Source: Candidatus Micrarchaeota archaeon (lineage in GTDB: Archaea > Micrarchaeota > Micrarchaeia > Norongarragalinales > UBA8480). From it: a DNA stretch of 28,160 nt. Within the stretch, counting starts at the first letter, position 1. The number at the start of each line of letters is the position of its first letter. Both the position numbers and the translations under genes were made by a program. The notes under the pieces are model-generated. The model was not told the DNA's origin. It did no database searches and worked only from the letters and a program-made list of their open reading frames with translations. Of the stretch, positions 6,056-25,578 are shown piece after piece. The stretch lies in contig JAZDHP010000045.1 in assembly GCA_043805855.1 (NCBI GenBank), positions 1 through 28,160 on the forward strand, read 5' to 3'.

Positions 6056-6113
6056 TTTTCACTGGGAGTTTTTCTTTTCCCACGGACTTTTCTTTTTCTA
6101 AAAGAAAAGCCGA
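6056..6113 (-). other. tRNA-Lys T-loop intron (59/60), 58 nt
   Basis: TTCA/TGAA 4-bp helix flanked by 3-nt bulges AA|T and AA|T. Confidence 0.9.
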
Positions 6114-6135
6114 TTTGAACCCCTGACCCTCTGGT

Positions 6136-6159
6136 TGCTGCCTCTAGTTTTAGTAGAGT
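6136..6159 (-). other. tRNA-Lys canonical intron (37/38), 24 nt
   Basis: CTCTA/TAGAG stem; relaxed BHB with one mismatch in the central helix. Confidence 0.88.
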
Positions 6160-6205
6160 TAAAAGCCAGATGCTCTAGCCAAGCTGAGCTACGAGCCCGT
6201 ACAAG

Positions 6206-6294
6206 GGCCGCCACCGGGAAGTTTAGCCGGACGCATTCCGACGCCGGAACCTCGCCTTACTGATCCCTCTGGAACCATAAAAACCCGTGCGACC
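6206..6294 (-). ncRNA. Candidate structured RNA (three-way junction) immediately 5' of tRNA-Lys
   Basis: GC-rich; GGTCGC/GCGGCC closing stem enclosing TGGTTCC/GGGATCA and GAGGTT-CCGG/CCGG-AACTTC hairpins; G-U pairs favour the minus strand. Confidence 0.5.
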
Positions 6295-6320
6295 TTTTGC
6301 TTATTTTTTCGGGGTAAAGG

Positions 6321-6330
6321 TAAATATAAA
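6321..6330. promoter_or_regulatory. Probable bidirectional TATA box
   Basis: TAAATATAAA lies about 25-30 nt from both the PIN ATG (+) and the structured RNA/tRNA unit (-). Confidence 0.5.
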
Positions 6331-6351
6331 TGCGTGTACCTAATTTTTGAA

Positions 6352-6729
6352 ATGATTCCAGTTGTAATTGACACTAATGTTTTGCTTCTTCAGTTCCAGA
6401 AGCGGGTTAACCTAGAGGAAGAGATAGAGCGGTTAATTGAAGCACCGCATTTTTTTGTTGTGCTAGAGCAATGCGTTGATGAGTTGAAGGCAATGGCTTC
6501 GAAGCAAAGGAAGTTTTCCCTCGCGGCTAGGGCAGCGTTGGCTTTGATAAGGGTAAAATATAAAGTTGACAAAAGTACCGCTGGAAAGCCAGACGATGCG
6601 ATGTTAAATTACTGCGTTGCGAATGGCGGGATATTGTGTACGCTTGACGTTGCGCTTCGCAAAAAAGCTCGCGACAAGGGGGTAAAAGCAGTTTTTCTCA
6701 GGGGGGAAAGCCACTTGTCTCTAGCGTAG
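6352..6729 (+). CDS. PIN-domain protein (Fcf1/Utp24-like, COG1412)
   Basis: VVIDTNVL, DEL, DDAM, CTLDVALRKKA; conserved position upstream of rpoE1. Confidence 0.9.
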   Translation: MIPVVIDTNVLLLQFQKRVNLEEEIERLIEAPHFFVVLEQCVDELKAMASKQRKFSLAARAALALIRVKYKVDKSTAGKPDDAMLNYCVANGGILCTLDVALRKKARDKGVKAVFLRGESHLSLA

Positions 6730-6821
6730 CAAAGGCCCCCAGCGCGGCCTTCAGCACAAGCGAAGCTTGTGTCTGAGTCACAAATGCAGCGGCATTTGTG
6801 CTCATTGAGACCACGGCAACC
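6730..6821. repeat. Multi-hairpin intergenic element, copy 1, flanked by a 9-bp direct repeat CTAGCGTAG
   Basis: Direct repeat at 6721-6729 and 6822-6830; core 6751-6804 is homologous to 23377-23431. Confidence 0.8.
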
Positions 6822-6885
6822 CTAGCGTAGTGTTTTTTAATCAGTTTTCTTCTATTTTTTTTACGTTTTATTGAGGTTTACTTAT

Positions 6886-7401
6886 ATGTATCGATTAGTT
6901 ACTTTCAAAGAAGTTGTAAGAATTCCCCCAAGTTACTTTGGCAAAAAAGTTTCTTTTGGGGCGCTTGACTTGCTCCGCGAGCAATATGAACGTACTGTTT
7001 CCAAACAGCATGGCATAATTGTTTCGCTGCACAACGCTCGCGTTATGTCAAAAGGCAAAGTTATTCACGGCGATGGCGCAGTTTTCTGCGATGTTGAATT
7101 CGACGCGCTTGTGTTTACGCCGGTTGTAAATGAAGTTGTTGAAGGTAGAGTTTCTGAAATTGTTGAATTCGGCGCGTTTGTGCGCCTAGGGCCAATTGAT
7201 GGTTTAGTACACGTTTCACAAGTTGCAAATGACTACTTTTCCTACGACAAGAGAACTGGTTCCTTAGTTGGAAAGAACTCTAAGAAAACAGTGAAAAAAG
7301 GAGAGTTAATGCGCGGTAAAATTGCAACTGTTAGTTTGAAAGACACAATTCCAAACAGTAAAATTGCGTTGACAATGCGCAACGAGCCGTCAAACAAGTA
7401 A
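6886..7401 (+). CDS. rpoE1: DNA-directed RNA polymerase subunit Rpo7 (E')
   Basis: VRIPP, HGDGAV, and an S1 domain EFGAFVRLGPIDGLVHVSQ. Confidence 0.97.
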   Translation: MYRLVTFKEVVRIPPSYFGKKVSFGALDLLREQYERTVSKQHGIIVSLHNARVMSKGKVIHGDGAVFCDVEFDALVFTPVVNEVVEGRVSEIVEFGAFVRLGPIDGLVHVSQVANDYFSYDKRTGSLVGKNSKKTVKKGELMRGKIATVSLKDTIPNSKIALTMRNEPSNK

Positions 7402-7415
7402 AAAGGTCGATTGTA

Positions 7416-7604
7416 ATGAATGAAAAAGCATGTAGGCAATGTCGATTAGTAGTTGAAGGGCAAGTTTGCCCGTTGTGCAATACTGGTGAACACTTAACCA
7501 AAACCTGGGAGGGGTACATTTTCGTTGTTAACCCTGAAGGTTCTGAAGTTGCAGCTGCAATTGGTGCAAAAACGCCAGGCAAGTATGCTTTGAAAATCAA
7601 ATAA
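7416..7604 (+). CDS. spt4: Transcription elongation factor Spt4 (RpoE'')
   Basis: KACRQC...CPLC, WEG, SEVA, PGKYALK. Confidence 0.96.
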   Translation: MNEKACRQCRLVVEGQVCPLCNTGEHLTKTWEGYIFVVNPEGSEVAAAIGAKTPGKYALKIK

Positions 7605-7652
7605 GTTAAGTAGCTAGCTGAGTGATTTAATTATTTTTAATGGTGAATAAAA

Positions 7653-7952
7653 ATGGAAGTTAAAATAAATTCTAAAACTGAAAACAAGCTTTTCGATAGG
7701 ATTGAAGTGAATGCAACTTTGTCTAAGTATACATCTACTCCCTCGCGTAAAGAAGTTGAACAAGCGCTTTGCAATGAATTAAAATGTCCAGTTGGCGCGC
7801 TTGTTATAAATGAAATTTTACAACCGTTTGGTACGAAAACTGCAACGGTAAATGCGCGCGTCTATGTTTCTCCAGAACAAGCTGGAAAAATGGAACCAAA
7901 GTATAAGTTCCAGCGTGGGAAACCAAAAGAAAAACCAGTGGAAGCTAAGTAG
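7653..7952 (+). CDS. rps24e: 30S ribosomal protein eS24
   Basis: ENKLFDRIEV, TPSRKEV, FG...ARVY; synteny. Confidence 0.93.
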   Translation: MEVKINSKTENKLFDRIEVNATLSKYTSTPSRKEVEQALCNELKCPVGALVINEILQPFGTKTATVNARVYVSPEQAGKMEPKYKFQRGKPKEKPVEAK

Positions 7953-7976
7953 TAAGAAAAAGGGTGTTTACAAATT

Positions 7977-8114
7977 ATGGCTAAAGATAAAAAAAAGAAA
8001 CCAAAAGCATATGTTGTAGGAAAATACTGTTTAAAATGCGGGCCAGGAACTAAAATGGCCAGCCACAAGGATAGAAACGCTTGTGGAAAATGCGGCTACG
8101 CTGAACACAAGTGA
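7977..8114 (+). CDS. rps27ae: 30S ribosomal protein eS31 (S27ae); not in the ORF track
   Basis: Translated by hand: MAKDKKKKPKAYVVGKYCLKCGPGTKMASHKDRNACGKCGYAEHK. Confidence 0.95.
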   Translation: MAKDKKKKPKAYVVGKYCLKCGPGTKMASHKDRNACGKCGYAEHK

Positions 8115-8698
8115 GTCTCGTAGCAAACGTACTAATACTTCTTTTTCCCTTTTTTACAATCATGGCTGCTTTAAGTGCGTTTATTTTATACGCGGCGCTA
8201 ATTGCTTTTACGCTATTTCTAGCTAAGAAAAAAAACTGGAAACAAACGCTTGAATATTTAGGTGTATTTTGCAAAAAGTTTTCCCTCTCCCAAACGGTTG
8301 TTGAGTCAATTTTACTTTTTGTTTCGATGTTCTTTCTCCTAGCTGTTGAACTTTTTGTATTTTCTCTTTTCAATTTAGATGATTCGCAAAACGTTGCAGT
8401 TGTAATTTCGCAATTGTCTATATTTGCAATTATAGTTGTTGCTACAATTGGTCCATTTGCTGAAGAGTTGTTCTTCCGCGGCTTTTTGCAAAAACACATT
8501 GGTGTAATTTTGTCAAGTTTAGTGTTTGCGCTGTTGCATTTTTCTTTTGGTTCAATTGTAGAAGTTGCTGGCGCGTTTACCGCTAGCTTGGTTTTAGGTT
8601 ATTGGGTGCGTTACCGTAGCAAGAATTTGTGGCCTGCAATAATCGCCCACGCGCTTTACAACATTGTAAGTATGGCTTTTGTTCTGGTGGTGCAATGA
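8111..8698 (+). CDS. CPBP (CAAX/Abi) family intramembrane metalloprotease
   Basis: AEELFFRG, FALLH, IIAHALYN; multiple TM helices; GTGA overlap with rps27ae. Confidence 0.92.
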   Translation: MSLVANVLILLFPFFTIMAALSAFILYAALIAFTLFLAKKKNWKQTLEYLGVFCKKFSLSQTVVESILLFVSMFFLLAVELFVFSLFNLDDSQNVAVVISQLSIFAIIVVATIGPFAEELFFRGFLQKHIGVILSSLVFALLHFSFGSIVEVAGAFTASLVLGYWVRYRSKNLWPAIIAHALYNIVSMAFVLVVQ

Positions 8699-9762
8699 AA
8701 ACCATAAAAGCAACAAGGGTAACGAAGACAAAGAAAGTAACTGCTGCAATGAAAGTGCTTGGTATTGAAAGCACTTGTCATACTTTTTCAATCGCGATAG
8801 TTGAAAAGCGCAACGGAAAATTTACGGTTCTTGCCAACGAAGTTGCAAAATATCCTTCTACTTGCGAAGGTTACATTCCGTGGAAACTAGCAGACCACCA
8901 CGCTGTTGTATTTCAACAACTGCTAAGCGACGCGCTTGCAAAGTCGCATATTTCATTAAGCGAAATTAGCGCAGTTGCATATTCGCAGGGAAGCGGCATT
9001 GGGCACTGTTTACATGTTGGGTTCGTCGCTGCCAAAACCCTTTCTAAAACACTAGCAGTGCCGCTTGTTCCAGTTAACCACAGCGTTGCCCACATTGAAA
9101 TTGGCCGCGCGTTTAACTGCGCTACGACTGATCCGTTGATTGTTTATGTTTCCGGCGGCAACACACAAATCCTTGCGCTTGACGTTAACAATAAAAAAGA
9201 AAAACATTATCGCGTTTACGGTGAAACTATCGACATCGGGATTGGCAACTTCCTTGATGTTCTTGGCAGAGATTTGCAGTTAAAGCCGCCAGACGCAGCA
9301 GGAGTCGCGCACTCTGCAGGGAAGGGAAAGAAATTCATCGAACTTCCATATACTGTTCGCGGCATGAACCTCGCGTTTTCCGGGTTGCAAACTTACATTA
9401 GCAAGAAAGTGCTGCCGCAGATTAAGCTTGGTAAATTGTCCGCTGAAGATGTTTGCTATTCTGTTCAAGAAACTGCATTTGCAATGTTGTGCGAAGCAGT
9501 TGAACGAGCGCTGTGTCACACGGGCAAAAAAGAATTGCTGCTATGTGGAGGAAACGCGCGTAACCAACGCTTGCAGGAAATGTTGAGAGAAGTTTGCCAC
9601 GAGCACGACGTTAACTTTGCGTGTACTTCGTTTGAGTATTCCGGCGATCAAGCGGCGATGATAGCGTTAACTGGGATAAAAATGCTTGAAAGCAAAAGCG
9701 TGCCGAGGGATGTGACGCCACGGCAGCGAATGAGAACTGACTCGACGAGAATAATGTGGTAA
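8695..9762 (+). CDS. kae1: KEOPS t6A transferase Kae1
   Basis: LGIESTCHT, VNHSVAHIE, YVSGGNTQ, GETIDIGIGN, QETAFAML; ATGA overlap with a GGTGGTG SD. Confidence 0.96.
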   Translation: MKTIKATRVTKTKKVTAAMKVLGIESTCHTFSIAIVEKRNGKFTVLANEVAKYPSTCEGYIPWKLADHHAVVFQQLLSDALAKSHISLSEISAVAYSQGSGIGHCLHVGFVAAKTLSKTLAVPLVPVNHSVAHIEIGRAFNCATTDPLIVYVSGGNTQILALDVNNKKEKHYRVYGETIDIGIGNFLDVLGRDLQLKPPDAAGVAHSAGKGKKFIELPYTVRGMNLAFSGLQTYISKKVLPQIKLGKLSAEDVCYSVQETAFAMLCEAVERALCHTGKKELLLCGGNARNQRLQEMLREVCHEHDVNFACTSFEYSGDQAAMIALTGIKMLESKSVPRDVTPRQRMRTDSTRIMW

Positions 9763-9807
9763 ATTTCGTCGTGTCAAAACCTTTTTATTCTCTTTTTTCG
9801 CATGTTT

Positions 9808-9873
9808 TACTTAACGAAGCGTATGTGCTTCGTTAAGGCCTTACACTTCGCTTGGCGAAGTGTAAGTTAAGTA
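9808..9873. repeat. Tandem perfect hairpins between kae1 and the sua5-like gene
   Basis: CTTAACGAAGC/GCTTCGTTAAG (9810-9837) and CTTACACTTCGC/GCGAAGTGTAAG (9840-9866). Confidence 0.8.
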
Positions 9874-9938
9874 CCCAAGGTTAGCTAGAAGATTTAGATT
9901 CTAGTGGGCAGTGGGAATTCAAAGTGTAGGTGTTTAGA

Positions 9939-10589
9939 ATGAAGACTAAGCTTTACCAGTTTATTTTAAAAGAGCGTGAAAAAACCGCCAAGGTTTTGGA
10001 ACAAGTTGCACTTATGTTGCAGAACAACGGCGTTGCTATTATTCCAACTGAAACTTGTTATGTAATTACAATTGACGCCACTAGCGAAGAAGCTGCTAAG
10101 AGAGTACTTGCGTTGGGAGTAGTGCCTAGTGAAGGTCACCCGGTTCTAGTGAGCGATTTGAGAATGGCACAGGAGTACTTAAATGTTAATGAAATAGCTG
10201 TACAAATTGCAAACGCGTTTATGCCTGGCCCAGTAACGGTTTTAGTTGACCGCGCTCCTGAGTCAAAACTATCCCCAACAATGTTTCCCTCCGCAGCTGC
10301 GTTTAGAGTTTCTAGCAACGTTTTCGCCCGCGCGTTGTCAAATGAATTAGGAAAACCACTTGCAATTTTCATTTTGCCAGACAAGCCAATTTACAACTTA
10401 AAAGAAATCCAAGACAAATTTACGGGCAAGGTTGAAGCAATTGTAGGTGCGGGAGATTTGCCTCACACACCCCCAACTACAGTTGTAGATGTACGTTCAA
10501 CTCCGTTAAAGCTAGTGCGCGAAGGGCAGATGCCGTTAAGTGAAATAAACGCGCTTGTAACTGAAACGTCTCAAACTATTTCAAGGTAG
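9939..10589 (+). CDS. Sua5/TsaC (YrdC)-family protein with degenerate catalytic motifs
   Basis: IPTETCY, FMPGPVT, PTTVVD, LVREG; the KxR and SAN motifs are absent. Confidence 0.85.
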   Translation: MKTKLYQFILKEREKTAKVLEQVALMLQNNGVAIIPTETCYVITIDATSEEAAKRVLALGVVPSEGHPVLVSDLRMAQEYLNVNEIAVQIANAFMPGPVTVLVDRAPESKLSPTMFPSAAAFRVSSNVFARALSNELGKPLAIFILPDKPIYNLKEIQDKFTGKVEAIVGAGDLPHTPPTTVVDVRSTPLKLVREGQMPLSEINALVTETSQTISR

Positions 10590-11191
10590 TGAAAGCAATG
10601 CACGGTGCAGAAGCAATTGTAACTCCTTGTACTTTTTTCAACGCTAGTTGTGTCGCAAAGCGCCGGCTACCAAAAGTTTACCGCAATTTAGTTCTAGATT
10701 CTAAACTACGCCGTGAGCGCACTAAACTAGAAGCGAGGTTGTTACATCGTGCAAAAGAACGTGGTGTTTCGTGTCCGTTGGTGTTAAATGTTGATTTGGA
10801 AAAATGCGAGATAGTTGAATCTCAATTAAATGGCGTAAAGTTAGTTGATTTTCTCAAGACAAAAAACGTGTCGGCAGTATTGCAAAAAGCAGGAGTTCAA
10901 CTTGCACTACTGCACAGCGCTGGAATAAGTCACGGCGACGCAACAACTTCCAATTTTATGGTGTGCAACGACGGCGACAAAGTTTTTCTATTTGACTTTG
11001 GACTATCGCAGGGAAGCGCTTCGCTTGAAGACCAAGCAATTGATATACTGTTGTTTGAAAAGAGTGTTTCACCGCAACAATTTGTCAAATTTCTAACTGG
11101 CTATCGCGGTGAACGCGGTGAAAAACAAACCACTGCACTTTTACGCCAAGTTGCTGAAATAAAATCACGCTGCCGCTACGTTGAACGCTAA
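10589..11191 (+). CDS. bud32: KEOPS kinase/ATPase Bud32
   Basis: GAEA, KRRLPKVYR, RTKLEARLL, HGDATTSN, DFGL, C-terminal RCRY. Confidence 0.95.
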   Translation: MKAMHGAEAIVTPCTFFNASCVAKRRLPKVYRNLVLDSKLRRERTKLEARLLHRAKERGVSCPLVLNVDLEKCEIVESQLNGVKLVDFLKTKNVSAVLQKAGVQLALLHSAGISHGDATTSNFMVCNDGDKVFLFDFGLSQGSASLEDQAIDILLFEKSVSPQQFVKFLTGYRGERGEKQTTALLRQVAEIKSRCRYVER

Positions 11192-11240
11192 ACTTGTTTC
11201 AGTATTACTTTTTTAACTTGTTTTTAGTATAGTACTCTTC

Positions 11241-12113
11241 ATGTGGTTCTGGTATGCGCTTGGTGCGGCTGTTATAGTTGCGCTTTCTGCAATGACTGAA
11301 AAGAAAATCTTGCAGCATGAGCATTCGCTTTCATTTTCAACTGGCTACTCGCTTGTTGTTCTCCTTTTATCGTTGCCGTTGTTTTTCTTCGCTGACTTTT
11401 CCACTCTAACGCGAGAAACGCTGGTTTTTCTATACATTGGAACGTGGCTAGCGTCAATAGGCTTTTGGCTAAACGCCAAGGGAACCAAACATTTGGACTT
11501 GTCAATAGCATCTCCTTTAACCGTTTCCAGCTTAGCTTTTCTCCCGTTCCTTGCGTTTTTTCTAGTTGGCGAAAAACTAGTTTTGCAGCAAATAATTGGA
11601 GTAGCGCTTATTTTCATCGGCGTAGTCGCACTTGAGCTAATAATTCACCATGGTAAATTGTTTCCAGTTATTTCAACAAAGGGAAAAGAACGTTACATTT
11701 CGCTAATGCTATTAGCTGGCTTGCTATACGCGTTAACCGCAATTGTTGACAAAACAGTTCTTTCAACTTGGAGCGTTTTTACCTACCTGTTAATCGCGCA
11801 TTGCTTCATTGCGTTTAATAGCGTAATTTTAATGTGGGTGATTGACGAAAACTACAAACGCGACTTGAAAAAACTATTCTCGCAAGATTGGAAAATAATT
11901 GTACTTGATTCGATTCTCTCTGTATTCGCTCGTTTGTTAACAATGTTTGCCATTTCAGGCGCATATGTGAGCCTAGTAGTTGCAGTGAAACGCCTAAGCG
12001 CACTTTTCACAACGGTTGTTGGCGGAAAGCTGTTCCACGAGAAAAACTTAAAAGAAAAAATAGCAATTTCTATAATGATGGTCGCCGGAGCAGCGCTACT
12101 GGCGCTATCGTAA
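11241..12113 (+). CDS. DMT/EamA family transporter
   Basis: About ten TM helices in two repeats; GEKL and FHEKNL motifs. Confidence 0.9.
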   Translation: MWFWYALGAAVIVALSAMTEKKILQHEHSLSFSTGYSLVVLLLSLPLFFFADFSTLTRETLVFLYIGTWLASIGFWLNAKGTKHLDLSIASPLTVSSLAFLPFLAFFLVGEKLVLQQIIGVALIFIGVVALELIIHHGKLFPVISTKGKERYISLMLLAGLLYALTAIVDKTVLSTWSVFTYLLIAHCFIAFNSVILMWVIDENYKRDLKKLFSQDWKIIVLDSILSVFARLLTMFAISGAYVSLVVAVKRLSALFTTVVGGKLFHEKNLKEKIAISIMMVAGAALLALS

Positions 12114-12147
12114 AAATTCTTTTAGACAAAATGCGTTTCAATTCTTT

Positions 12148-12666
12148 TCAACGCAAGTGTTTTATGTAGTGTAAAACGCGGAAGCTTTGCCTAAGTTTAC
12201 GGTCAATAATAACTTCTCCGCTGAATTTTCTAAACCCTTCTTTTTCAAGTTGCGTACGGCGCGGATAGTTAGTTGAAAGAGTACTTCCAAGTATACAATC
12301 ACTTTTAGTTTCTTGTGCGTGTTTTAACCTAGCTAAGTTCAAAGCAGTTGCAATGCCTCTCCTGCGGTGTTCCTTTGCAACTGCTAAATTGTGCAAAACG
12401 TAAACTTTTTTGCCTTCTAGTTCTCTAAACTTTGTTTGGTTTAAAACACTTCCAACTGCTAATCCCAAAACCACGTTTTTTTCAACAGCTACAAAGACTT
12501 TAACATGAGTAATTGACCTCCCTCGGTCAACTGCCGGCCTTACGTTATCTGGAGTTAAAATAACTTCGTGCGGCAGCTCCTTAAAAGTCTCGCGATAAAG
12601 CCTATCTACTTGTTCAACTTCCTCTTCGTTTCTAATGTCCAATTCACGAATTTCAAAGTTTGGCAT
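12148..12666 (-). CDS. GNAT family N-acetyltransferase
   Basis: LAVAKEHRRRGIATAL acetyl-CoA motif A; LEKEGF. Confidence 0.88.
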   Translation of the reverse strand: MPNFEIRELDIRNEEEVEQVDRLYRETFKELPHEVILTPDNVRPAVDRGRSITHVKVFVAVEKNVVLGLAVGSVLNQTKFRELEGKKVYVLHNLAVAKEHRRRGIATALNLARLKHAQETKSDCILGSTLSTNYPRRTQLEKEGFRKFSGEVIIDRKLRQSFRVLHYIKHLR

Positions 12667-12679
12667 GTTTTTTCTCTCT

Positions 12680-13696: not shown

Positions 13697-13740
13697 GGCT
13701 TAAACGTATTATAAATAATCAACCTTTGAGGTGGCTTTAT

Positions 13741-16295: not shown

Positions 16296-16304
16296 TTTGA
16301 TTAA

Positions 16305-18142: not shown

Positions 18143-18160
18143 AAAATAGCCCCGAGCGGA

Positions 18161-18222
18161 GTTCCGATTTCTTCATGGTTTTCTTTTCCGTGAAGCTTTT
18201 CTTTTGTAAAAAGAAAAGGTTC
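18161..18222 (-). other. tRNA-Gln T-loop intron (59/60), 62 nt
   Basis: TTCG/CGGA helix with bulges AA|G and AC|T. Confidence 0.9.
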
Positions 18223-18243
18223 TTCGAACCGCTGTCCACAGCT

Positions 18244-18303
18244 CTCTCTGAAAAGCGCTCGGCCAGAGGTCTAAAAGGCCTGCGGCCGTAAGCGGCCTTT
18301 TCT
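18244..18303 (-). other. tRNA-Gln canonical intron (37/38), 60 nt
   Basis: Strict BHB: CTCT/AGAG helix, bulges GG|A and AG|A, GAAAAG/CTTTTC outer helix. Confidence 0.93.
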
Positions 18304-18326
18304 CCAGAGGCTGCTATCCTTGACCA

Positions 18327-18386
18327 ACATCTGAACAAGTCGAGTTTCTTTTCCCGACGGCTTTTCTTTCTTAAAGAAAAGGCTCA
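18327..18386 (-). other. tRNA-Gln D-loop intron (15/16), 60 nt
   Basis: GTCT/AGAT helix, bulges AG|T and GT|T, GAGC/GTTC outer helix. Confidence 0.88.
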
Positions 18387-18465
18387 CTAGACGACGGGGC
18401 TATTTAGTATTATTTTGGTAGTTTATGTTTTTATAATTGAGTTGTACTTGTTACTTTGGTGTTTT

Positions 18466-18729: not shown

Positions 18730-18730
18730 G

Positions 18731-19252: not shown

Positions 19253-19325
19253 TTGATAACAAGGTTAATATTGTTACTCCGGTTATTTAAACTGTTTTTT
19301 ATAAGGAACGGAGTTAGACCCACTG

Positions 19326-19484
19326 ATGACTATGACTGGAGACGATATTGTACAGAATTGCCGCGAGTGCTTTTTCCAAAACGGCTATGGAATTAAGCTT
19401 AACCCAAATGGAAATATACTAGTTTGTCCACATGATTCTAACCATCGCTATGAAGTTCGCAGCGGTATGTTGGAACGTGTTTAA
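19326..19484 (+). CDS. Small zinc-ribbon protein; not in the ORF track
   Basis: MTMTGDDIVQNCRECFFQNGYGIKLNPNGNILVCPHDSNHRYEVRSGMLERV; TATA-like TTTATAA upstream; ends 3 nt before the next ATG. Confidence 0.75.
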   Translation: MTMTGDDIVQNCRECFFQNGYGIKLNPNGNILVCPHDSNHRYEVRSGMLERV

Positions 19485-19487
19485 ATC

Positions 19488-20054
19488 ATGGGTTTATTTT
19501 CGTTTGGCAAAAAGCCAATTGAACAACTTTTAAAAGAAGGAGTGAAAAACGAAGCTGAGTTAAAACAATTAATCAGCGAAGCTTGCTCAAAAGGTGCAGT
19601 GCATGCTAAGTTTTTCCTAGATGCCCACAGCGTTGAAAAAACAGCAGCTGAAGATTCTCTAATTACGTTAGTTGCGCAGTTAACAAAAGAAAAAGGCGTA
19701 CTTTACTGCAAGGGGATTATTGAACCAACAGTTGAATCTGACGGTTTAAACTCTGCATTCACAACTGTTGATCTAGTTACTACTAACTTTAGAATTATGG
19801 TTTCAATTGCAATGCGCTATGGTCCAACTAGTGTTGAAATAATGGAACCAAATGATAAAGTTGTTGTTCCAGTTGCTGATTGCCAGGGTATTTTGCTAAA
19901 CGCTAGCGACATGTCCCAGTCATTCTCGCGTCACATTATGGAAAATTCAATGAACGAACAGCAACGCGTTACGTTTACTAAACAAATGCAAGCTAAAGCA
20001 GACTACGGAGCAAAGCTAAGAGAAAAAGCTGAAAAAACAGCTTCTAAACCATAA
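19488..20054 (+). CDS. Conserved archaeal hypothetical protein
   Basis: 188 aa with a YGPTSVEIMEP motif; host-like codon usage. Confidence 0.8.
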   Translation: MGLFSFGKKPIEQLLKEGVKNEAELKQLISEACSKGAVHAKFFLDAHSVEKTAAEDSLITLVAQLTKEKGVLYCKGIIEPTVESDGLNSAFTTVDLVTTNFRIMVSIAMRYGPTSVEIMEPNDKVVVPVADCQGILLNASDMSQSFSRHIMENSMNEQQRVTFTKQMQAKADYGAKLREKAEKTASKP

Positions 20055-20057
20055 AGT

Positions 20058-20402
20058 CTAGCAAAGCGGCAAGTGGAGATTCCAAAGGCGTTTAAACGTC
20101 TGACCGTACTTATTTTGACTTGTTATGAAAATTACATCTCCAGTTTGCAATAGCTTGAAGTGAGTTGCAAAGCCCGGGCTATAGTCCCGCATTATTTCCG
20201 TTAACTCTGCATACTTCGGCCGCATTGTTTCTACATGCGTTTCTCCAACGGCGTCATTGTTCCAGAGTTTGTCTCCTCTTTTGTTTTGTTTGTGGTGTTC
20301 GTGAATTGCGTTTATCAACTCGCGCGCCCTACACGGCAAGTCTTCAAAACGCAGCTTATCCCTACACGGCGTTTCTATCACAATTACTGCCCCCCTGTTC
20401 AC
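20058..20402 (-). CDS. Hypothetical protein
   Basis: 114-codon GTG ORF that ends 3 nt from the convergent gene; no motif recognised. Confidence 0.45.
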   Translation of the reverse strand: MNRGAVIVIETPCRDKLRFEDLPCRARELINAIHEHHKQNKRGDKLWNNDAVGETHVETMRPKYAELTEIMRDYSPGFATHFKLLQTGDVIFITSQNKYGQTFKRLWNLHLPLC

Positions 20403-20582
20403 TATAGGAAATGTCTGATTAATAAAGCAAAGTGCCTAGTTTTCGGCATAAAGGGACAAAATTAGGGCGTTTGTTAGTCGTTTGACTGAACTCTGAGGGC
20501 TTTTTTTGTACATTTTCCGTCTATTTCCAGTCGTTTTGCTTATTTAACGAAACAGTGATAAGTTTGAAGGTTAATTTCTGGT

Positions 20583-22166
20583 TTATTTCTTCGTGTACAT
20601 TTCTTCTAGGATGACTCCAAACGCCGGTCGAGTGATGAACACTCCAGCTAGTATTCCAATTATTACTGATAGCGCAAAGCCGCTGATTTCAACCATTCCT
20701 GAAAGAAGTAAAGGTAACATGGCGACTATTGCTACTCCTGCGATTGTAAATATGATTGTAAATGCTTTTCCAATTTTTTCGCGCATGTTGTACTCGGTGC
20801 GTTCATCTTCTTCTTCGCCGTTTGTTTTCTTACGCAGTAGTTCATCTGTAATAATAAGCTGGTCAGCTACTCCGGTTCCAATTAGGGAGATTACTGCTGC
20901 CATTGTTGCTAAGTCAAGTGTACCGATTTTGCCAATTATTGCGGTCAGTATCAAGATTTCACATGCGTTTATCAACACAATTGGGACGCTTAACTTGAGA
21001 TCGCCATAGCGTATAATAATGAAAAATGCAACTACGATAATTGCAAGCAGCGTTGCGATCCAACTATAATTTAGAAATTGCTTGCCTAGTGAAGGTTCAA
21101 TTGAAAATGAGCTGCCTACAAGTGCGCTTACTGGTAACTTCCCGCCGCTGATTACGCTTTTGAGTTGCTTTATCTCGCGCTGTGAATACTCTTCTTGTTC
21201 TTGCTGCGTTGCGCCAACTGCAGTGCCGCTAATTGAATAAAATTGCGATGCAGTGCCGCCGGCAAGCCCTTCTGAAAGCCGCGGTGAAGACAATAGCCCA
21301 ATTGCCTTCCATTCGCTTATCTCACCACTTACTGCGGTTGGCTGCATTTCTAGTTGTGTTTTTACAATTATCTTTTTAGTTGCATTTTCGGCATTTGAAA
21401 AGCCCAACGCTGTTAATTTGCCGCTAATTGCGGTTAATGTTTCTTGAGTGAGTATAATTCTACTTTTGTTTGCAAGTAACGCTGTTGAATTTGACAGCTC
21501 GTCGGCGTATAATAGCAACATGTTGTCATTTTCTTTTACAAGCGCGTCGCTTGCTTGTTTTTCTCCAATTGCCGATAAGTCACCGTGGGTTAGAATCACA
21601 GCTGCATTTTCCGGCCTGTCGAGAAACATGTAAACTGGGTAATTAGCTTTGTTGAGTGCTGCTTTGGCGAATAAATCAGCGCCGCCGCGCGTTACGGTAA
21701 AACTAAGCGACCATTGTGGCACGCCGAGGTTTTCTGGCGTTTGTTCCCCGTTTGCACCGCCAACTGCAACTACGCTTTCTCCTGAAACTGCAATTTTACC
21801 GTCAATAATGCCTTCAAAACGGCCTTGGTCTTGCAAAATTTTCTTTACGCTTGTAATTACCTTTTCATCAGCTTGAGGTATTTCAACTAAAACTTCGTTG
21901 CCCCCAATTGGCCGTACAATTGCTTGTGACATGCCATAACTGTTAATCCTGTTTTTCAAAGTTTCTACAATTGAATCCATTGTAGTTGCGTCAACGTTCT
22001 TCTCAAGCGTAATTGGTATTCGCACCCCGCCGACAAATTCAATTCCTAGCCTTGCGTCGAAAGTTGACGGGTTAGCATCGCTTAGAAACAGTGAAAATAT
22101 AGAAAGGAAAACAACTACTAGTAGCACTTGGATTTTGAAATTTTTAAGTAGTTTAGAATAGTTCAT
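20583..22166 (-). CDS. secD: Protein translocase subunit SecD
   Basis: LGIEFVGGVRI, RIN.YG, large extracellular domain, GKLP, PSLG, GTGVADQLIITDE, FITRPAF. Confidence 0.93.
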   Translation of the reverse strand: MNYSKLLKNFKIQVLLVVVFLSIFSLFLSDANPSTFDARLGIEFVGGVRIPITLEKNVDATTMDSIVETLKNRINSYGMSQAIVRPIGGNEVLVEIPQADEKVITSVKKILQDQGRFEGIIDGKIAVSGESVVAVGGANGEQTPENLGVPQWSLSFTVTRGGADLFAKAALNKANYPVYMFLDRPENAAVILTHGDLSAIGEKQASDALVKENDNMLLLYADELSNSTALLANKSRIILTQETLTAISGKLTALGFSNAENATKKIIVKTQLEMQPTAVSGEISEWKAIGLLSSPRLSEGLAGGTASQFYSISGTAVGATQQEQEEYSQREIKQLKSVISGGKLPVSALVGSSFSIEPSLGKQFLNYSWIATLLAIIVVAFFIIIRYGDLKLSVPIVLINACEILILTAIIGKIGTLDLATMAAVISLIGTGVADQLIITDELLRKKTNGEEEDERTEYNMREKIGKAFTIIFTIAGVAIVAMLPLLLSGMVEISGFALSVIIGILAGVFITRPAFGVILEEMYTKK

Positions 22167-22169
22167 TTT

Positions 22170-23279
22170 TCAAACTCGCGCCTCTTTTTTCTCAGCGTAT
22201 GACAAAATTAACACGGCGTTTAAGCCCCATGTTGCGGCAAAGTCAATAACTCCACCAATCATGGCAACTATTCCAAGTTCAAAGTAAACTGGAATTTGTA
22301 AATATAACCCGGTAAGCGCTAGAACTCCATATGCGCTGATTACAGTTAAGTTCATCAATGAACCGGTTTTAAACGCGCCAAATACCCGTTCTGCGGGTGT
22401 TCCTTCTTTTCTCTTTAACACACGCATCGTAAGCATAATGTCAGTATCAAGAGAAAATCCAATTAACATTAACAACGCTGCAATAGACGCGAGGGACATT
22501 GGAATGTTGAACAAACTCATTGCTCCTAGTGTTATGACAATATCACTAACTGCGCCAACTATAACCGCGGCGCTTGGTACAATACTTCTAAAAACAACGA
22601 AAACTGCAATTGCAGCTAAAATAAAAGAAATTAATAGAACTTCTCGAGATTTGTCAAGGAAAAACTTACTAAGCGCCGGGCCAACTTCTCTAAAGGAGTA
22701 ACTCTTTACATTAACAACGCCTTTCACCGCGTTTATAACTTCATTGCGATAAACATCCTGTTGGTTATTGTAAGCGCCAACAGCTTCTTTTACAGTTAAA
22801 TGCGCTTCAATTGGAGTGTAACTAACCCCAAGTTCTTGAAAAATTACCTTTGCATCTGAAATAATTTCTGCGCTTACTGCGCTTTCCCGCTGTGCAATTG
22901 TAACAGCTTCCTCTGTGGGTACAACAGTCGCGTTTACCTCTAACTCTCTTAGCAAACTATCCTTTGCCTGTAGCGCTTTAATTTTCTCTTCAATTTTAGC
23001 CAGTTTGTCATTTGTTTCAAGTTCAACTTCCAAGCCAGTGCCAACTGGGCTTGCAAAAGTGCGAATGTTAGAAATAGTTGCAACTTTAGCAACTGCAGCG
23101 TGTACCGCAGCTACGTCTACGTTGCCTTGAGCTTGTATTGAGAGTAAAACTCCTCCCTTTAGGTCAACTCCCTGCGGCACGCCGTTGAAAAAGATCAGCC
23201 CAAGAGCTGCAATGAATAAAACTATGGGGATTATTGCGAGTAACTTATAATTTCCAGTGTAAAAATTCGGTAACTTCAT
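22170..23279 (-). CDS. secF: Protein translocase subunit SecF
   Basis: GVDLKGG, EVGPAL, FRSIVPS, LMLIGFSLDTDIMLT, TWGLNA. Confidence 0.93.
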   Translation of the reverse strand: MKLPNFYTGNYKLLAIIPIVLFIAALGLIFFNGVPQGVDLKGGVLLSIQAQGNVDVAAVHAAVAKVATISNIRTFASPVGTGLEVELETNDKLAKIEEKIKALQAKDSLLRELEVNATVVPTEEAVTIAQRESAVSAEIISDAKVIFQELGVSYTPIEAHLTVKEAVGAYNNQQDVYRNEVINAVKGVVNVKSYSFREVGPALSKFFLDKSREVLLISFILAAIAVFVVFRSIVPSAAVIVGAVSDIVITLGAMSLFNIPMSLASIAALLMLIGFSLDTDIMLTMRVLKRKEGTPAERVFGAFKTGSLMNLTVISAYGVLALTGLYLQIPVYFELGIVAMIGGVIDFAATWGLNAVLILSYAEKKEARV

Positions 23280-23339
23280 TCTAAACCACAAAAAACCTAA
23301 AAACAGTACTAAATCCAGCGCGCTGAACTTTAATAACCC

Positions 23340-23442
23340 TTGGCCATGCCTTTCTTTTTTCCAAAAAGAAAGGCCATCAGCACAAGGCAGAGCCTTGTGT
23401 CTGAGTCATAATGCCCTAGGCATTATGCTCAGGCGTGGCCAA
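23340..23442. repeat. Multi-hairpin intergenic element, copy 2
   Basis: TTGGCCATGCCT/AGGCGTGGCCAA closing stem; three internal hairpins; core homologous to 6751-6804. Confidence 0.8.
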
Positions 23443-23513
23443 AGAAAAATCGTTTTAATATGAAATTAAATGCAGGGAGCCCAAGCCAAGGTTAAACCTA
23501 GAAGCTCAAATGT

Positions 23514-23831
23514 TCAGCGGTTGACTCCAAGCGCTTTACATGTAATGCAGTTGTTTTCATATTTCTTGTAACGATAATACTTCAAATGAATGCCGCGTTG
23601 TTTCATCAATTCAAGCAACTCCTTATGCGTCATCATTTTTCCCCGTAGTTCAACGCGCAGCGTTTCAACTTCCTGCAACGCGCAACCCAATTTACTGGAA
23701 ATTACTGAGCCATTTTCCAGTTCTTCAAAATATTTTTCTTCATCCCGCAAAGCATTATTCGGGCTCTCAATGTAATTCCCCAAGTACCAATTAATCGCGC
23801 GGTCAGCTGAAACAACTAGTTTAGAAGCCAT
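23514..23831 (-). CDS. Hypothetical protein with a C-terminal CxxC
   Basis: 105-aa ATG ORF inside the island. Confidence 0.6.
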   Translation of the reverse strand: MASKLVVSADRAINWYLGNYIESPNNALRDEEKYFEELENGSVISSKLGCALQEVETLRVELRGKMMTHKELLELMKQRGIHLKYYRYKKYENNCITCKALGVNR

Positions 23832-23917
23832 GGCAATAACAATATTACGATCAATTTGCGCCTTTTACCCCTTTTGTTAAACTCCACTAATACCGACCGA
23901 TCTACATAACTTATATT

Positions 23918-23947
23918 TAGTTTACTTTAGGGTAAACTATTTAAATA
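23918..23947 (+). promoter_or_regulatory. Inverted-repeat operator abutting the TATA box of the AbiE-like operon
   Basis: TAGTTTAC-N6-GTAAACTA followed by TTTAAATA about 20 nt before the ATG. Confidence 0.55.
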
Positions 23948-23966
23948 TCAATTTCCATAATTTTTC

Positions 23967-24587
23967 ATGGGCAGCGGGTTTACCGGACAGTCACAGCGAA
24001 TAGTCATGTTTCTCTTGCTAAATGCCAGGAAGCCAGTCAGTCAGCTAGCGATAGTTAAGGCAACGAGATTGAGCAAGAGTTTAGTAAGCAGAGTAGTGAG
24101 TTTACTAGTTGCAAAGGGGGTCGTCAAGCGGCCTTATCGTTGCCGGTTTGTGCTTGAATACCCTGAAAAGCTACTTTTGGATTGGATTGGACAACGAAAC
24201 ATTGCGATGAAAAAAGCTTATTTTGCCAAAGACACAAACTTATTGAAAGAAGTAAAGCACTGCCACACTCTTTTGTCTGGTGCTTGGCTTGATTCTGGCT
24301 ACTTGGCAAGTGAATTTATAACTGTTTATGTTGAGCCAAATTTCAAACCAGCGGCTTCCATGAACCTAATTGAAGGTAAAGTTGGCGAGTTAAAGTCGAA
24401 AGTGGTTTTAATCCCAGCTGATGATGAATTTGTATTTTACGGCAAATGGAGCATAAACAACGAAGAAGTTGTAAACCCTTTTCTGCTTTACGTTGACTTA
24501 GCTAGCTTTGGCGGCATTGCGTTTACTGCCTTGCAGCAAGTTAGCGAAAAACACGGCTTCCCGAGTTTATTTGAGGCGAAAAAATAA
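23967..24587 (+). CDS. wHTH protein, AbiEi-like type IV antitoxin
   Basis: N-terminal HTH SQLAIVKATRLSKSLVSRVV..L..KG; LLLDW; C-terminal VVNPFLLYVDL. Confidence 0.75.
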   Translation: MGSGFTGQSQRIVMFLLLNARKPVSQLAIVKATRLSKSLVSRVVSLLVAKGVVKRPYRCRFVLEYPEKLLLDWIGQRNIAMKKAYFAKDTNLLKEVKHCHTLLSGAWLDSGYLASEFITVYVEPNFKPAASMNLIEGKVGELKSKVVLIPADDEFVFYGKWSINNEEVVNPFLLYVDLASFGGIAFTALQQVSEKHGFPSLFEAKK

Positions 24588-24588
24588 T

Positions 24589-25239
24589 ATGGTTGAAGTT
24601 TATGGAAGGGAGATTTGTGAAAAATCTTTCAGGGAAATGGAACGGTTTGTGTTCCATGCTAATCAACTTGGCGAAACGCCCCTATTGTTCGGCGGCTGGG
24701 CAGTTTATCACTACAATCAATACGCTGGAAGCCGCGACGTTGACTTCATTGTAACAGATGAACACTTTGAAGCGCTGGTTGACTTTCTAGTTGCAAATGG
24801 CTATACAAATAAAGAGGTTCGCTTGTTTAAAGACGACATTTTCTTTGACTTATACAAACAAAGCGAAGATATTGGAAGCGAAGCAAACAAACTCCAATTC
24901 AATTTACTTTACAAAGATGCAGAGCGAGTTTACTTGAAACGCTATGGTTCAACCGGCGGAAAAGGAGAAGTGCTAATTCCAAAGATTTCCAATTTGCTTT
25001 TCTTCAAAATCCACGCCTTGGCTAACCGCAGCGTGCCAAAAGACAGAAGCGACGTAACCGCACTAATACTCAAAGCCAATGACGACGACTTAAAAGAACT
25101 TGAACAAATGCTATCGCCAGAACTCAAAACGCGACTCGAAACATTGAGAAACGACCAAGCAACACTAACACTCATAACTACTCCGACACGGCGAAACCTC
25201 AACTCACTGAACAAGAAAATCAAAGAAATAACAAGTTGA
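24589..25239 (+). CDS. Pol-beta-superfamily nucleotidyltransferase, AbiEii-like toxin
   Basis: LFGGWAV...SRDVDF; K..A...R...KDRSDV. Confidence 0.8.
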   Translation: MVEVYGREICEKSFREMERFVFHANQLGETPLLFGGWAVYHYNQYAGSRDVDFIVTDEHFEALVDFLVANGYTNKEVRLFKDDIFFDLYKQSEDIGSEANKLQFNLLYKDAERVYLKRYGSTGGKGEVLIPKISNLLFFKIHALANRSVPKDRSDVTALILKANDDDLKELEQMLSPELKTRLETLRNDQATLTLITTPTRRNLNSLNKKIKEITS

Positions 25240-25285
25240 ACTAAAAATAGCGATTCTTGGTTTAAGCAAGATGCAGGGAGCCGGA

Positions 25286-25347
25286 TTTTCACGGAAAGAA
25301 TTTTTCTTTTCCCACGGACTTTTCTTTTTTGCAAAAAGAAAAGCCGT
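25286..25347 (-). other. tRNA-Leu T-loop intron (59/60), 62 nt
   Basis: TTCA/TGAA helix, bulges AA|A and AA|T; near-identical to the tRNA-Lys T-loop intron. Confidence 0.9.
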
Positions 25348-25378
25348 TTTGAACCGGCGAACTCCTAAGAGACAGGAT

Positions 25379-25439
25379 TTCTCACCCGCAAGTGTTCTTT
25401 TGGGGTTGAAAGACCTTTTCTTTCAAGAAAAGGGCTTTC
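25379..25439 (-). other. tRNA-Leu canonical intron (37/38), 61 nt
   Basis: CTTA/TGAG helix, bulges AG|G and AA|A; two internal hairpins. Confidence 0.9.
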
Positions 25440-25483
25440 CTTAAGTCCTGCGCATTTGACCAGACTTTGCTATCCCTGCATTT

Positions 25484-25578
25484 TACAGTGATAGGAGGAA
25501 TGCTTCCTTTCAGTCGTTTTTTTGGCGACTGAAAGCACCTTTTCTCAAAAGGGGCTTTCCTGAACTATCCCTGCATTT
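25484..25578 (-). repeat. Intron-like double-hairpin element upstream of tRNA-Leu, with a duplicated tRNA 5' end
   Basis: CTATCCCTGCATTT (+) at 25470-25483 and 25565-25578; internal GAAAGC-C-CCTTTT/AAAAGG-T-GCTTTC and CAGTCG/CGACTG hairpins. Confidence 0.75.

Follow-up and report, generated by a model that had tools for sequence, protein, structure and literature searches.

A dispersed three-tract mirror repeat carried mainly in the tRNA introns of a Micrarchaeota genome

Interrupted tRNA genes and stray module copies

The window, that is, the whole 28,160-nt stretch of DNA that was analysed, yields no tRNA in its unspliced form, either by ARAGORN or by Rfam at the gathering threshold. When bulge-helix-bulge (BHB) introns are removed in silico, ARAGORN recovers three minus-strand tRNAs, Lys-UUU, Gln-CUG, and Leu-UAA, each with a canonical cloverleaf (scores 116-123) and interrupted by two, three, and two introns, respectively, in line with the preliminary description of three multi-intronic genes with seven introns. 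Five of the seven introns carry a shared module. The tRNA genes and introns are as follows, with BHB pairs given as central/outer/inner.

6042..6198, minus strand: tRNA-Lys(UUU) gene, two introns; ARAGORN 122.9 with both removed
6136..6159, minus strand: Lys intron 37/38, 24 nt, without the module; BHB with 3 of 4 central, 5 outer, and 5 inner pairs
6056..6113, minus strand: Lys intron 59/60, 58 nt, with the module (hairpin, then mirror tract); BHB 4/5/1
18147..18401, minus strand: tRNA-Gln(CUG) gene, three introns; ARAGORN 116.1 when spliced in silico
18327..18386, minus strand: Gln intron 15/16, 60 nt, with the module; BHB 4/3/4; covariance model 51.4 bits
18244..18303, minus strand: Gln intron 37/38, 60 nt, without the module; BHB 4/5/5; missing in the orthologue of genome G002
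18161..18222, minus strand: Gln intron 59/60, 62 nt, with the module; BHB 4/5/1; covariance model 56.5 bits
25272..25479, minus strand: tRNA-Leu(UAA) gene, two introns; ARAGORN 119.0 when spliced in silico
25379..25439, minus strand: Leu intron 37/38, 61 nt, with a variant of the module; BHB 4/5/0; covariance model 47.1 bits
25286..25347, minus strand: Leu intron 59/60, 62 nt, with the module; BHB 4/5/3; covariance model 57.4 bits

At their own junctions, all seven introns have 3 or 4 of the 4 central pairs and between 3 and 5 outer pairs, and the five with the module reach 4 of 4 central and 3 to 5 outer pairs, each with its own exons, which bears out the earlier claim of site-specific ends. 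As had also been noticed, all five contain a pyrimidine/purine hairpin (hairpin 1) with an AAAAGAA-type tract on its 3' side, the variant in Leu 37/38 being built from a GAAAG/CTTTC outer stem and short tracts. The Lys 59/60 intron is the top covariance-model match (62 bits), and its minimum-energy fold comprises two 3-nt bulges, hairpin 1, and a looped purine tract. Two 3-nt bulges appear in the folds of four of the five module introns, with Leu 37/38 as the exception, and the purine tract is unpaired in four of the five (ViennaRNA minimum-energy folds, which contain hairpins only). The tract had been described as the A-rich loop of a second hairpin; it is indeed mostly unpaired, but the stronger regularity is that it mirrors the purine arm of hairpin 1. 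The exact hairpin pattern occurs four times in the window, against 0.00 expected from 100 shuffles. At Gln 37/38, a single metagenome contig skips the 60 nt, a weak hint.

Two hairpins had been pointed out beyond the tRNA genes, and both prove to be copies of the module.

23342..23449, plus strand: free-standing full module in an intergenic gap, in pyrimidine-purine-purine order, with tracts A5GA3 and then A3GA5
23375..23429, no strand assigned: nested 55-nt double-hairpin insert between hairpin 1 and the mirror tract, interrupting the free-standing module
23471..23481, minus strand: 11-nt fragment that matches the 3' acceptor end of tRNA-Leu(UAA) exactly, located 21 nt upstream of the free-standing module
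25480..25574, minus strand: leader insert upstream of tRNA-Leu, containing a degenerate module (25531-25559)

The hairpin placed at 23348-23374 belongs to the free-standing module, which sits between the open reading frames at 22170-23291 and 23514-23831; exactly the 55 nt of the nested insert are skipped by one related-metagenome contig (joint 23374 to 23430, side 52). By simple arithmetic, about 0.013 matches such as the adjoining 11-nt fragment are expected by chance in 28 kb on both strands. The variant placed at about 25532-25559 is the degenerate module of the leader insert. This insert, at whose border the first 10 nt of tRNA-Leu (25470-25479) recur at 25565-25574, is not seen in the 30-50 nt inspected upstream of the tRNA-Leu orthologues in G001-G003. 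Matches of 95% to the degenerate module occur at other places in G002 and G003, and one of these follows a tRNA-Thr match by about 6 nt.

A mirror rule and its genome-wide reach

Two features go beyond what had been observed before, namely, the genome-wide spread of the module and the mirror repeat of its third tract. The element, a non-coding repeat dispersed through the genome and about 45-50 nt long, is made of three tracts. A pyrimidine tract comes first; a loop of 2-4 nt separates it from a purine tract, its reverse complement; and a short spacer leads to another purine tract, the mirror image of the preceding one. All three are rich in A/T, with one or two G/C. Among 48 asymmetric cores, an exact mirror lies downstream in 44 and an exact direct copy in 6, whereas 2000 permutations gave a mean of 17.6 mirrors and a maximum of 27. 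The loci of relatives behave alike (mirror in 17 of 18, direct copy in 5; permutation mean 6.7, maximum 13), and a reversed-pattern control returned 0 matches in 401 genomes. A mirror tract (at least 80% match) is found on exactly one strand at 67 of the 76 hairpin loci, all three tracts vary in length jointly among the orthologous Leu 37/38 introns of G001-G003, and the rule holds in antisense copies and outside introns as well. On one DNA strand, this arrangement is that of a class II (purine-motif) intrastrand triplex, and on the other strand it is that of a pyrimidine-motif triplex. Since the third tract mirrors the purine arm of the hairpin, the likely level of action shifts from RNA to DNA.

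The 1.03-Mb genome contains 76 hairpin loci with perfect pairing over at least 8 bp, and a covariance model of the five window introns gave at least 53 genome matches at E≤0.01 when 150 of 806 candidates were scored. The majority of copies sit in tRNA introns, at 15/16, 37/38, 53/54, 59/60, in the D-loop, and at further sites, but others occupy an rRNA-like intron, tRNA leaders and trailers, and positions directly 3' of the stop codons of protein genes; several begin at, or no more than 4 nt past, a stop codon. Inverted pairs occur, and head-to-head dimers and antisense copies are found inside single introns. In 36 regions with a BLAST-assigned tRNA strand, complemented by reading of the sequence, 51 of 60 hairpins lie on the tRNA strand, 8 on the opposite one, and 1 is undetermined. 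Flanking duplications, exact runs of 16-23 nt within longer imperfect repeats, occur at three loci, the only 3 of 76 above the 95th percentile of the control (mean score 7.7 vs 7.8 in the control).

About 17 more tRNAs elsewhere in the genome reach ARAGORN scores of at least 114 once introns are removed in silico; in all, some 20 tRNA genes were reconstructed by script, other contexts being assigned from BLAST exon matches and reading of the sequence. Across the whole genome, ARAGORN without its intron option finds 3 tRNAs, and only 5 tRNA matches exceed the Rfam cut-off, only one of them of intron-free length. Nearly all tRNA genes of this genome are interrupted by short introns built on the element.

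Turnover between relatives and the enzymes encoded

Comparison of orthologous tRNA genes within the genus, as the preliminary description had proposed, reveals that the element is gained and lost between close relatives. At tRNA-Lys 59/60, G003 has no intron and G004 has one without the module, so the module is dispensable for that tRNA; in tRNA-Gln(CUG), the 15/16, 26/27, and 37/38 introns vary among G000, G001, and G002. Both introns of tRNA-Leu(UAA) are kept in all four same-genus genomes. Copies of the Lys 59/60 intron, 89% identical, lie beside the 3' half of tRNA-Phe in G002 and the 3' half of tRNA-Leu in G001, both halves assigned by reading of the sequence. With copies outside tRNA genes and differences between orthologues, the family is therefore neither confined to the loci first described nor invariant among relatives.

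The genome encodes a 388-aa EndA with the Pfam domains tRNA_int_endo and tRNA_int_endo_N, which matches PDB 4FZ2 over its full length (residues 9-388; E 9e-131). We take this structure to be the ARMAN-2 splicing endonuclease, and by similarity the enzyme is epsilon2-like. RtcB is also encoded (476-bit match), so that the predicted repertoire comprises both an RNA ligase and a splicing endonuclease suited to non-canonical sites. Searches of the 92%-complete genome gave no RVT_1 match for a reverse transcriptase, no Y1_Tnp match for a Y1/HUH transposase, and nothing convincing for TnpB (a single sub-threshold TnpB-like match of 18.6 bits). Hence, of the mobile selfish family proposed earlier, the conserved core with site-specific ends, the varied sites, the copies outside tRNAs, and the orthologue differences stand, whereas an insertion mechanism of its own gains little from these searches or from flanking duplications at three loci.

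Readings of the element and known relatives

We consider the element most probably (roughly 60%) a dispersed repeat that operates at the DNA level, its copies surviving in tRNA genes by being spliced out. Copies would spread at the DNA level through a process dependent on the three-tract structure, either recognition by some enzyme or replication and repair errors at a triplex, and would be retained chiefly in tRNA and rRNA genes, since there the broad-specificity three-unit EndA can excise them as BHB introns and RtcB can rejoin the exons. In the pre-tRNA, hairpin 1 would stack beside the 5' bulge as the inner helix, and the short 3' tail, 4 nt complementary to the 5' exon plus 2 nt, would supply the central helix; because this tail is site-specific, the ends vary from site to site and the core stays constant. 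We counted in favor of this reading the abundance, the mirror covariation, the opposite-strand and non-intron copies, the three flanking duplications, the turnover within the genus, and the presence of EndA and RtcB. Against it we counted the strong sense bias, the failure to find a dedicated mobility enzyme, the rarity of flanking duplications, and the A/T-rich tracts, whereas known stable triplexes such as TMECO are rich in G/C. The sense bias is not expected of selfish spread purely at the DNA level unless selection removes antisense copies, possibly because these would add oligo-T, terminator-like tracts.

The sense bias, the majority of copies within introns, and the position of hairpin 1 against the 5' bulge with the purine tract mostly unpaired would also suit a functional RNA domain, which might shape the BHB in advance for the three-unit EndA, make the excised and possibly circular intron more stable, or bind a protein, its mirror tract making a tertiary contact with hairpin 1. 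We regard this as rather unlikely: purine-motif triplexes are reported to form in single-stranded DNA and not in RNA (Holder et al. 2015, in part of PMC4666352), a stem-closed loop of 9-11 nt should, by our reasoning, be unable to span a 10-bp groove, the mirror rule extends to antisense copies and copies outside introns, and tRNA-Lys of G003 and G004 does without the module. Less probable still is an absence of mobility, with old introns inherited vertically and homogenised by gene conversion and the mirror a by-product of A/G low complexity. T-arm flanks are indeed alike among tRNAs, and tRNA-Leu(UAA) keeps its introns throughout the genus sample, but both permutation tests and the reversed-pattern control reject a composition effect, Lys and Gln orthologues differ in intron content, and flanks are not shared by the copies in D-loops and anticodon loops, at 53/54, or outside tRNAs. 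Reverse splicing of an excised intron into another pre-tRNA, followed by copying to DNA and recombination into the gene, would account for near-identical introns at the same T-loop position of different tRNAs and for the sense bias, with EndA and RtcB at hand, but is improbable given the missing RVT_1 match and the antisense copies, head-to-head dimers within single introns, copies past stop codons, and long flanking duplications, none of them expected from it.

Our literature search found no paper describing the element. REP elements are linked to RAYT transposases. The element shares with REP/BIME elements and MITEs, which are named in the introduction of PMC4666352, a short structured form, stop-codon-adjacent starts, and inverted pairs; unlike them, it has no terminal inverted repeats, its third mirror tract is foreign to REPs, and no Y1/HUH enzyme was found. 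We rejected a transposase-driven MITE or REP, given the absence of Y1_Tnp and RVT_1 matches from the 92%-complete genome and flank repeats at 3 of 76 loci. According to the same part of PMC4666352, PIT, BoxC, and TMECO have the same class II order (pyrimidine stem, loop, purine stem, loop, mirror purine stem), many copies patchily distributed among close relatives, frequent inverted pairs, and ties to local sequence variability. TMECO, for which a DNA triplex was demonstrated, has G/C-rich 9-nt stems and is intergenic in Proteobacteria, unlike our A/T-rich, archaeal element, most copies of which lie within predicted spliced introns; we accordingly rejected membership in that family, which the element resembles in its workings. 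The words tRNA and intron do not occur in PMC4666352.

Closer in setting are the transposed tRNA introns of Thermoproteales (Fujishima et al. 2010, as summarised in the review PMC4090602), for which DNA-level spread was supposed and the mechanism left unexplained. Our element shows the marks of such a family, with closely similar introns at differing positions of non-orthologous tRNAs and with presence or absence varying between orthologues of close relatives. Our element differs, as far as that review summary goes, in its phylum (DPANN/Micrarchaeota), its defined three-tract mirror core, and its copies outside tRNA genes and in both orientations. ARMAN-2, in the passages devoted to it in PMC3239211 and PMC5829648, has the same type of enzyme, a three-unit epsilon2 EndA, together with multi-intron tRNA genes, introns at 37/38, 53/54, and 59/60, and a similarly large fraction of disrupted genes (56%); its example introns are short (13 and 25 nt), and those passages make no mention of a repeated module or mirror tract. 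In Caldiarchaeum, tRNA fragments are scattered and introns are gained through a mobile element (Sugahara et al. 2012, in part of PMC3293823), reminiscent of our short tRNA-end copies adjoining inserted DNA (23471-23481, 25565-25574, and the C9 and C32 trailers), but that element is 1.8 kb long and encodes a recombinase, whereas the inserts here are about 50-100 nt and non-coding.

The element offers an unusually clean case for the spread of tRNA introns, with a strict mirror rule, dozens of copies, gains and losses within a genus, and copies caught outside introns, some with flanking duplications. Since mutation can break the mirror rule, the rule lends itself to direct tests, in vitro (triplex formation, EndA cleavage) as well as in population data. 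Since standard finders miss almost every tRNA, inferences of completeness and codon usage are biased for DPANN genomes of this kind. More tentatively, the three-tract DNA structure may itself drive the gain of introns by archaeal tRNA genes: in tRNA and rRNA genes under heavy transcription, the non-template strand would adopt an intrastrand triplex, which would stall replication or draw in repair, the element would be copied to new sites by template switching or a structure-specific enzyme, and insertions would survive anywhere a BHB can form. If true, this would provide a first mechanistic handle on "intron transposition," left unexplained in the 2014 review (PMC4090602), and would explain the near-lack of intact tRNA genes in element-rich genomes.

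Module-bearing introns in the window and across the genome

Neither ARAGORN nor Rfam detects a tRNA in the unspliced sequence of the 28-kb window. We read the minus strand, spliced out candidate bulge-helix-bulge (BHB) introns computationally and applied ARAGORN to the result, which bears out the preliminary description of three multi-intronic tRNAs with a total of seven introns:

6042-6198, minus strand: tRNA-Lys(UUU), introns at 37/38 and 59/60, ARAGORN score after splicing 122.9
18147-18401, minus strand: tRNA-Gln(CUG), introns at 15/16, 37/38 and 59/60, score 116.1
25272-25479, minus strand: tRNA-Leu(UAA), introns at 37/38 and 59/60, score 119.0

The five introns that had been grouped as one mini-intron family (Lys 59/60, Gln 15/16, Gln 59/60, Leu 37/38, and Leu 59/60) are 58-62 nt long and share a module: a pyrimidine/purine hairpin (hairpin 1) followed, after a spacer, by a third tract of the AAAAGAA type. 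The exact hairpin pattern matches four times in the window versus never in 100 shuffles. All five introns can form a BHB with their own exon, as had been claimed: in each, four of four central-helix pairs join the intron to its 5' exon, and the outer helix has 3-5 pairs. Two 3-nt bulges are seen in the minimum-energy fold of four of them, where the 5' bulge directly adjoins hairpin 1 and the purine tract stays single-stranded; the fold of Leu 37/38 lacks the two bulges. Taken together, the gene reconstruction, the shared hairpin, and the BHB pairing establish that the original observation was correct. One detail requires amendment: the purine tract had been drawn as the loop of a second hairpin, which is facultative rather than a conserved trait, its stems shifting register and sometimes pairing with the tract. 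Watson-Crick pairing of the third tract with the first was rejected because asymmetric copies fall out of register, as was a C/D-box or k-turn identity (no box motifs visible, no Rfam match).

Across the whole assembly (1.03 Mb in 67 contigs, 92% complete; the window is contig C45), ARAGORN reports 3 tRNAs without and 10 with its intron option, and 5 Rfam tRNA matches lie above the cut-off, 1 of them of intron-free length. A covariance model trained on the five introns of the window returns at least 53 matches at E<=0.01 (5 being the training introns), with 150 of 806 candidates scored, and hairpins with perfect pyrimidine/purine pairing over at least 8 bp occur at 76 loci in 51 regions. By enumerating BHB candidates and passing the spliced sequences to ARAGORN, we reconstructed about 20 tRNA genes at scores of at least 114, relaxed settings yielding little more; in these 20 genes the module sits at 59/60 in the T-loop 17 times, at 37/38 four times, at 15/16 twice, and at 53/54 once. 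Contexts of the remaining hairpins were set by BLAST exon matches and by reading the sequence, making the census partly hand-made; further module-bearing genes are as follows.

Module-bearing tRNA genes identified by sequence reading
tRNA-Ala(UGC): module introns at 37/38 and 59/60
tRNA-Pro(UGG): module introns at 37/38 and 53/54
tRNA-Arg(CCU): module introns in the D-loop and at 37/38 and 59/60
a tRNA-Met: a further module-bearing gene
tRNA-Glu(UUC): a 150-nt D-loop intron made of a head-to-head module pair

Another copy, at C5:60434 (contig 5), looks to lie within an intron-like insert with flanks resembling 23S rRNA. Seven copies were read as lying in the leader or trailer of a tRNA, and six of the nine contexts left unplaced by BLAST as intergenic, their DNA starting 0-4 nt past the stop codon of a protein gene. 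Within the window, the reported hairpins outside tRNAs correspond to a free-standing module at 23342-23449, separated by 21 nt from an 11-nt fragment that repeats the 3' end of tRNA-Leu, and to a degenerate module in the tRNA-Leu leader, at whose border the first 10 nt of the tRNA recur. Immediately upstream of the 11-nt fragment and the free-standing module is a 105-codon ORF (23514-23831, minus strand).

A mirror rule and the strand of the copies

An alignment of 63 copies, used to compare the third tract with the purine arm of the hairpin, reveals that the former is the mirror image of the latter, and neither its direct repeat nor its complement (e.g., arm A3GA6 vs third tract A6GA3, or AGAAAGAAAAAG vs GAAAAAGAAAGA). 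At 67 of the 76 loci exactly one strand carries a mirror tract that matches by at least 80%, and at no locus do both strands carry one. An exact mirror lies downstream in 44 of the 48 copies with an asymmetric A/G core and an exact direct copy in 6, compared with a mean of 17.6 exact mirrors (maximum 27) when downstream flanks are randomly reassigned among copies in 2000 trials. The same holds in an independent set of 155 kb of loci from seven other genomes (G001-G003 of the same genus and the further relatives G004, G005, G013, and G021), where 25 of 31 hairpins have a mirror tract and asymmetric cores are followed by a mirror in 17/18 cases and by a direct copy in 5/18 (permutation mean 6.7, maximum 13). 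In the orthologous Leu 37/38 introns of our genome and G002, the length of all three tracts shifts together.

Templated copying gives rise to direct or inverted repeats, not to mirror repeats, and intrastrand triple helices are defined by just this layout, a homopurine mirror tract beside a hairpin. Judged by its sequence, the module covaries as a triplex motif. According to the available text of Holder et al. 2015 (PMC4666352), class II motifs, with pyrimidine-purine-purine order, form intrastrand DNA triplexes, and purine-motif triplexes cannot form in RNA, where pyrimidine-motif triplexes can. Comparison of 69 mature tRNA sequences with the 51 regions by BLAST assigned a strand in 36 regions holding 60 hairpins: 51 lie on the tRNA strand, 8 on the opposite strand, and 1 received neither call. 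The transcript has the purine-motif order in 51/60 cases and, since such a triplex is reported not to form in RNA, whatever keeps the mirror rule is more likely to act on DNA, on either strand, than at the level of the intron RNA. We regard an RNA-level function of the module as unlikely.

The strong sense bias stands out as the main finding that spread at the DNA level does not directly explain. Selection against antisense copies is one possibility; we conjecture that such a copy would put a second T-rich, terminator-like tract on the transcribed strand. The 8 opposite-strand copies comprise 3 partners of inverted pairs within single introns, 2 sole intron modules (C59:16122 and C34:1055), and 3 in leaders or trailers.

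Turnover between relatives and duplicated gene ends

Comparison of orthologous tRNAs, as the preliminary description had proposed, shows that intron presence differs between relatives in tRNA-Lys and tRNA-Gln. At position 59/60 of tRNA-Lys(UUU) our genome has a module intron and G004 a 43-nt module-less one; the G003 gene has an intact T-loop and an apparent D-loop intron.

Introns of tRNA-Gln(CUG) in three genomes of the genus
G000 (this genome): 15/16 module; 26/27 none; 37/38 module-less intron; 59/60 module
G002: 15/16 module with other tracts, still mirrored; 26/27 none; 37/38 none; 59/60 module
G001: 15/16 none; 26/27 25-nt intron; 37/38 intron; 59/60 module of another subtype

Both module introns of tRNA-Leu(UAA) are kept in all four same-genus genomes. 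Copies of the Lys 59/60 intron, 89% identical, adjoin the apparent 3' halves of a tRNA-Phe gene in G002 and of a tRNA-Leu gene in G001. Counted per strand, the hairpin pattern occurs 37 times in our genome, 8, 18, and 8 times in its three same-genus relatives, and 0-21 times per genome elsewhere in the order, a backward-hairpin control giving 0-1. Of 401 genomes sampled from the phylum, 52 contain the full three-part pattern, with ours at the top (25) and the reversed control at 0 everywhere, and its distribution by family is very uneven (0/94 and 0/83 in two large families vs 9/30, 5/7, and 9/21). Vertical inheritance with conversion appears improbable to us. Across five related genomes, as a description only, more hairpins go with fewer tRNAs that Rfam recognizes.

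Hairpin pattern and Rfam tRNA matches (E<=0.001)
G005: 0 hairpins, 31 tRNA matches
G021: 0 hairpins, 24 tRNA matches
G004: 3 hairpins, 21 tRNA matches
G002: 18 hairpins, 11 tRNA matches
G000: 37 hairpins, 6 tRNA matches

Flanking direct repeats exceed the control 95th percentile at three loci, each repeat being a copy of a gene 3' end:

C32:6163: tRNA-Pro 3' end
C9:30824: tRNA-Ile 3' end
C10:28990: last ten codons and stop codon of endA, flanking the module on each side

At endA (C10:28880-29140) the module lies directly 3' of the gene, with frame and stop intact in both copies. For tRNA-Pro(UGG) (C32:6095-6235) and tRNA-Ile(GAU) (C9:30760-30870), the duplication of the 3' end takes in the T-rich trailer as well (~30-40 nt, imperfect); the module inside is antisense and of the CCATGCC/GGCCAGGCGTGGCC subtype, and the second copy of the end could pair too as T-stem and acceptor.

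We also observe a second small element, two short perfect hairpins linked by a CTGAGTCA-like core, which in 4/4 cases splits a module at an equivalent point, after hairpin 1 and before the mirror tract:

window 23375-23429
C8:~9650-9690
C56:~2265-2320
C2:~11890-11945

We compared the window with metagenome contigs from a single study (three runs), which come from related organisms and are mostly less than 95% alike; stretches that no contig covers carry no information. One contig skips exactly the 55 nt of the window element (joint 23374 to 23430, side 52), which is a hint only. Two further joints, 18241-18302 with a side of 25 and 18244-18385 with a side of 20, are short-sided and weak.

Processing enzymes, precedents, and a proposed mode of spread

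The genome encodes a single EndA of 388 aa, with endonuclease N- and C-terminal domains, which aligns over its full length (E 9e-131) to PDB 4FZ2, presumably the three-unit epsilon2 EndA of ARMAN-2. The available text of PMC3239211 describes that enzyme as cutting strict and relaxed BHB motifs. RtcB is encoded at C59:12806-15532 in a 960-codon reading frame; between profile positions 50 and 45 this frame is interrupted by an insert of ~460 codons that looks like an intein. Neither RVT_1 nor Y1_Tnp has a match in the 92%-complete assembly, where absence is not proof, and the sole TnpB-like match is sub-threshold. There are two tyrosine recombinase matches, one of which (C32:15091-15585) lies ~0.5 kb downstream of an apparent multi-intron tRNA-Asp gene (C32:14426-14602) and may be part of an integrated element. 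Reverse splicing is the least probable explanation, and we give it very little weight.

The component phenomena are each known. As far as the available texts go, multi-intron tRNAs and epsilon2 EndA are described from Micrarchaeota (PMC5829648, PMC3239211), look-alike tRNA intron families at different positions, of unexplained mechanism, from Thermoproteales (PMC4090602), and intrastrand triplex repeats that mark variable regions, often in inverted pairs, from bacteria (PMC4666352). The last paper, in its available text, contains neither the word tRNA nor the word intron, whereas the module here is mostly intronic. As for the combination, our search of full-text literature, which reached few subscription journals, retrieved no description of a triplex-type repeat forming the core of most BHB introns in an archaeon, with copies also in leaders, in trailers, and after stop codons. 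A search of IMG/VR contigs for the exact three-part pattern gave 12 stretches, and at none of them was a tRNA context evident. Four viral contigs (loci L080, L086, L087, and L089) carry a longer form of this three-tract motif in non-tRNA context, a 14-15-nt pyrimidine tract followed by its complement and then the mirror, with nearly identical flanks in three of the four.

Abundant and present in either orientation, outside introns as well as inside them, the module turns over within the genus. In the pre-tRNA, hairpin 1 would serve as the BHB inner helix, and the 5' exon would pair with a short 3' tail that is specific to each site. We favor, with a probability of roughly 0.6, a reading in which module copies spread at the DNA level through a structure-dependent process and would persist where the cell can excise them from RNA.
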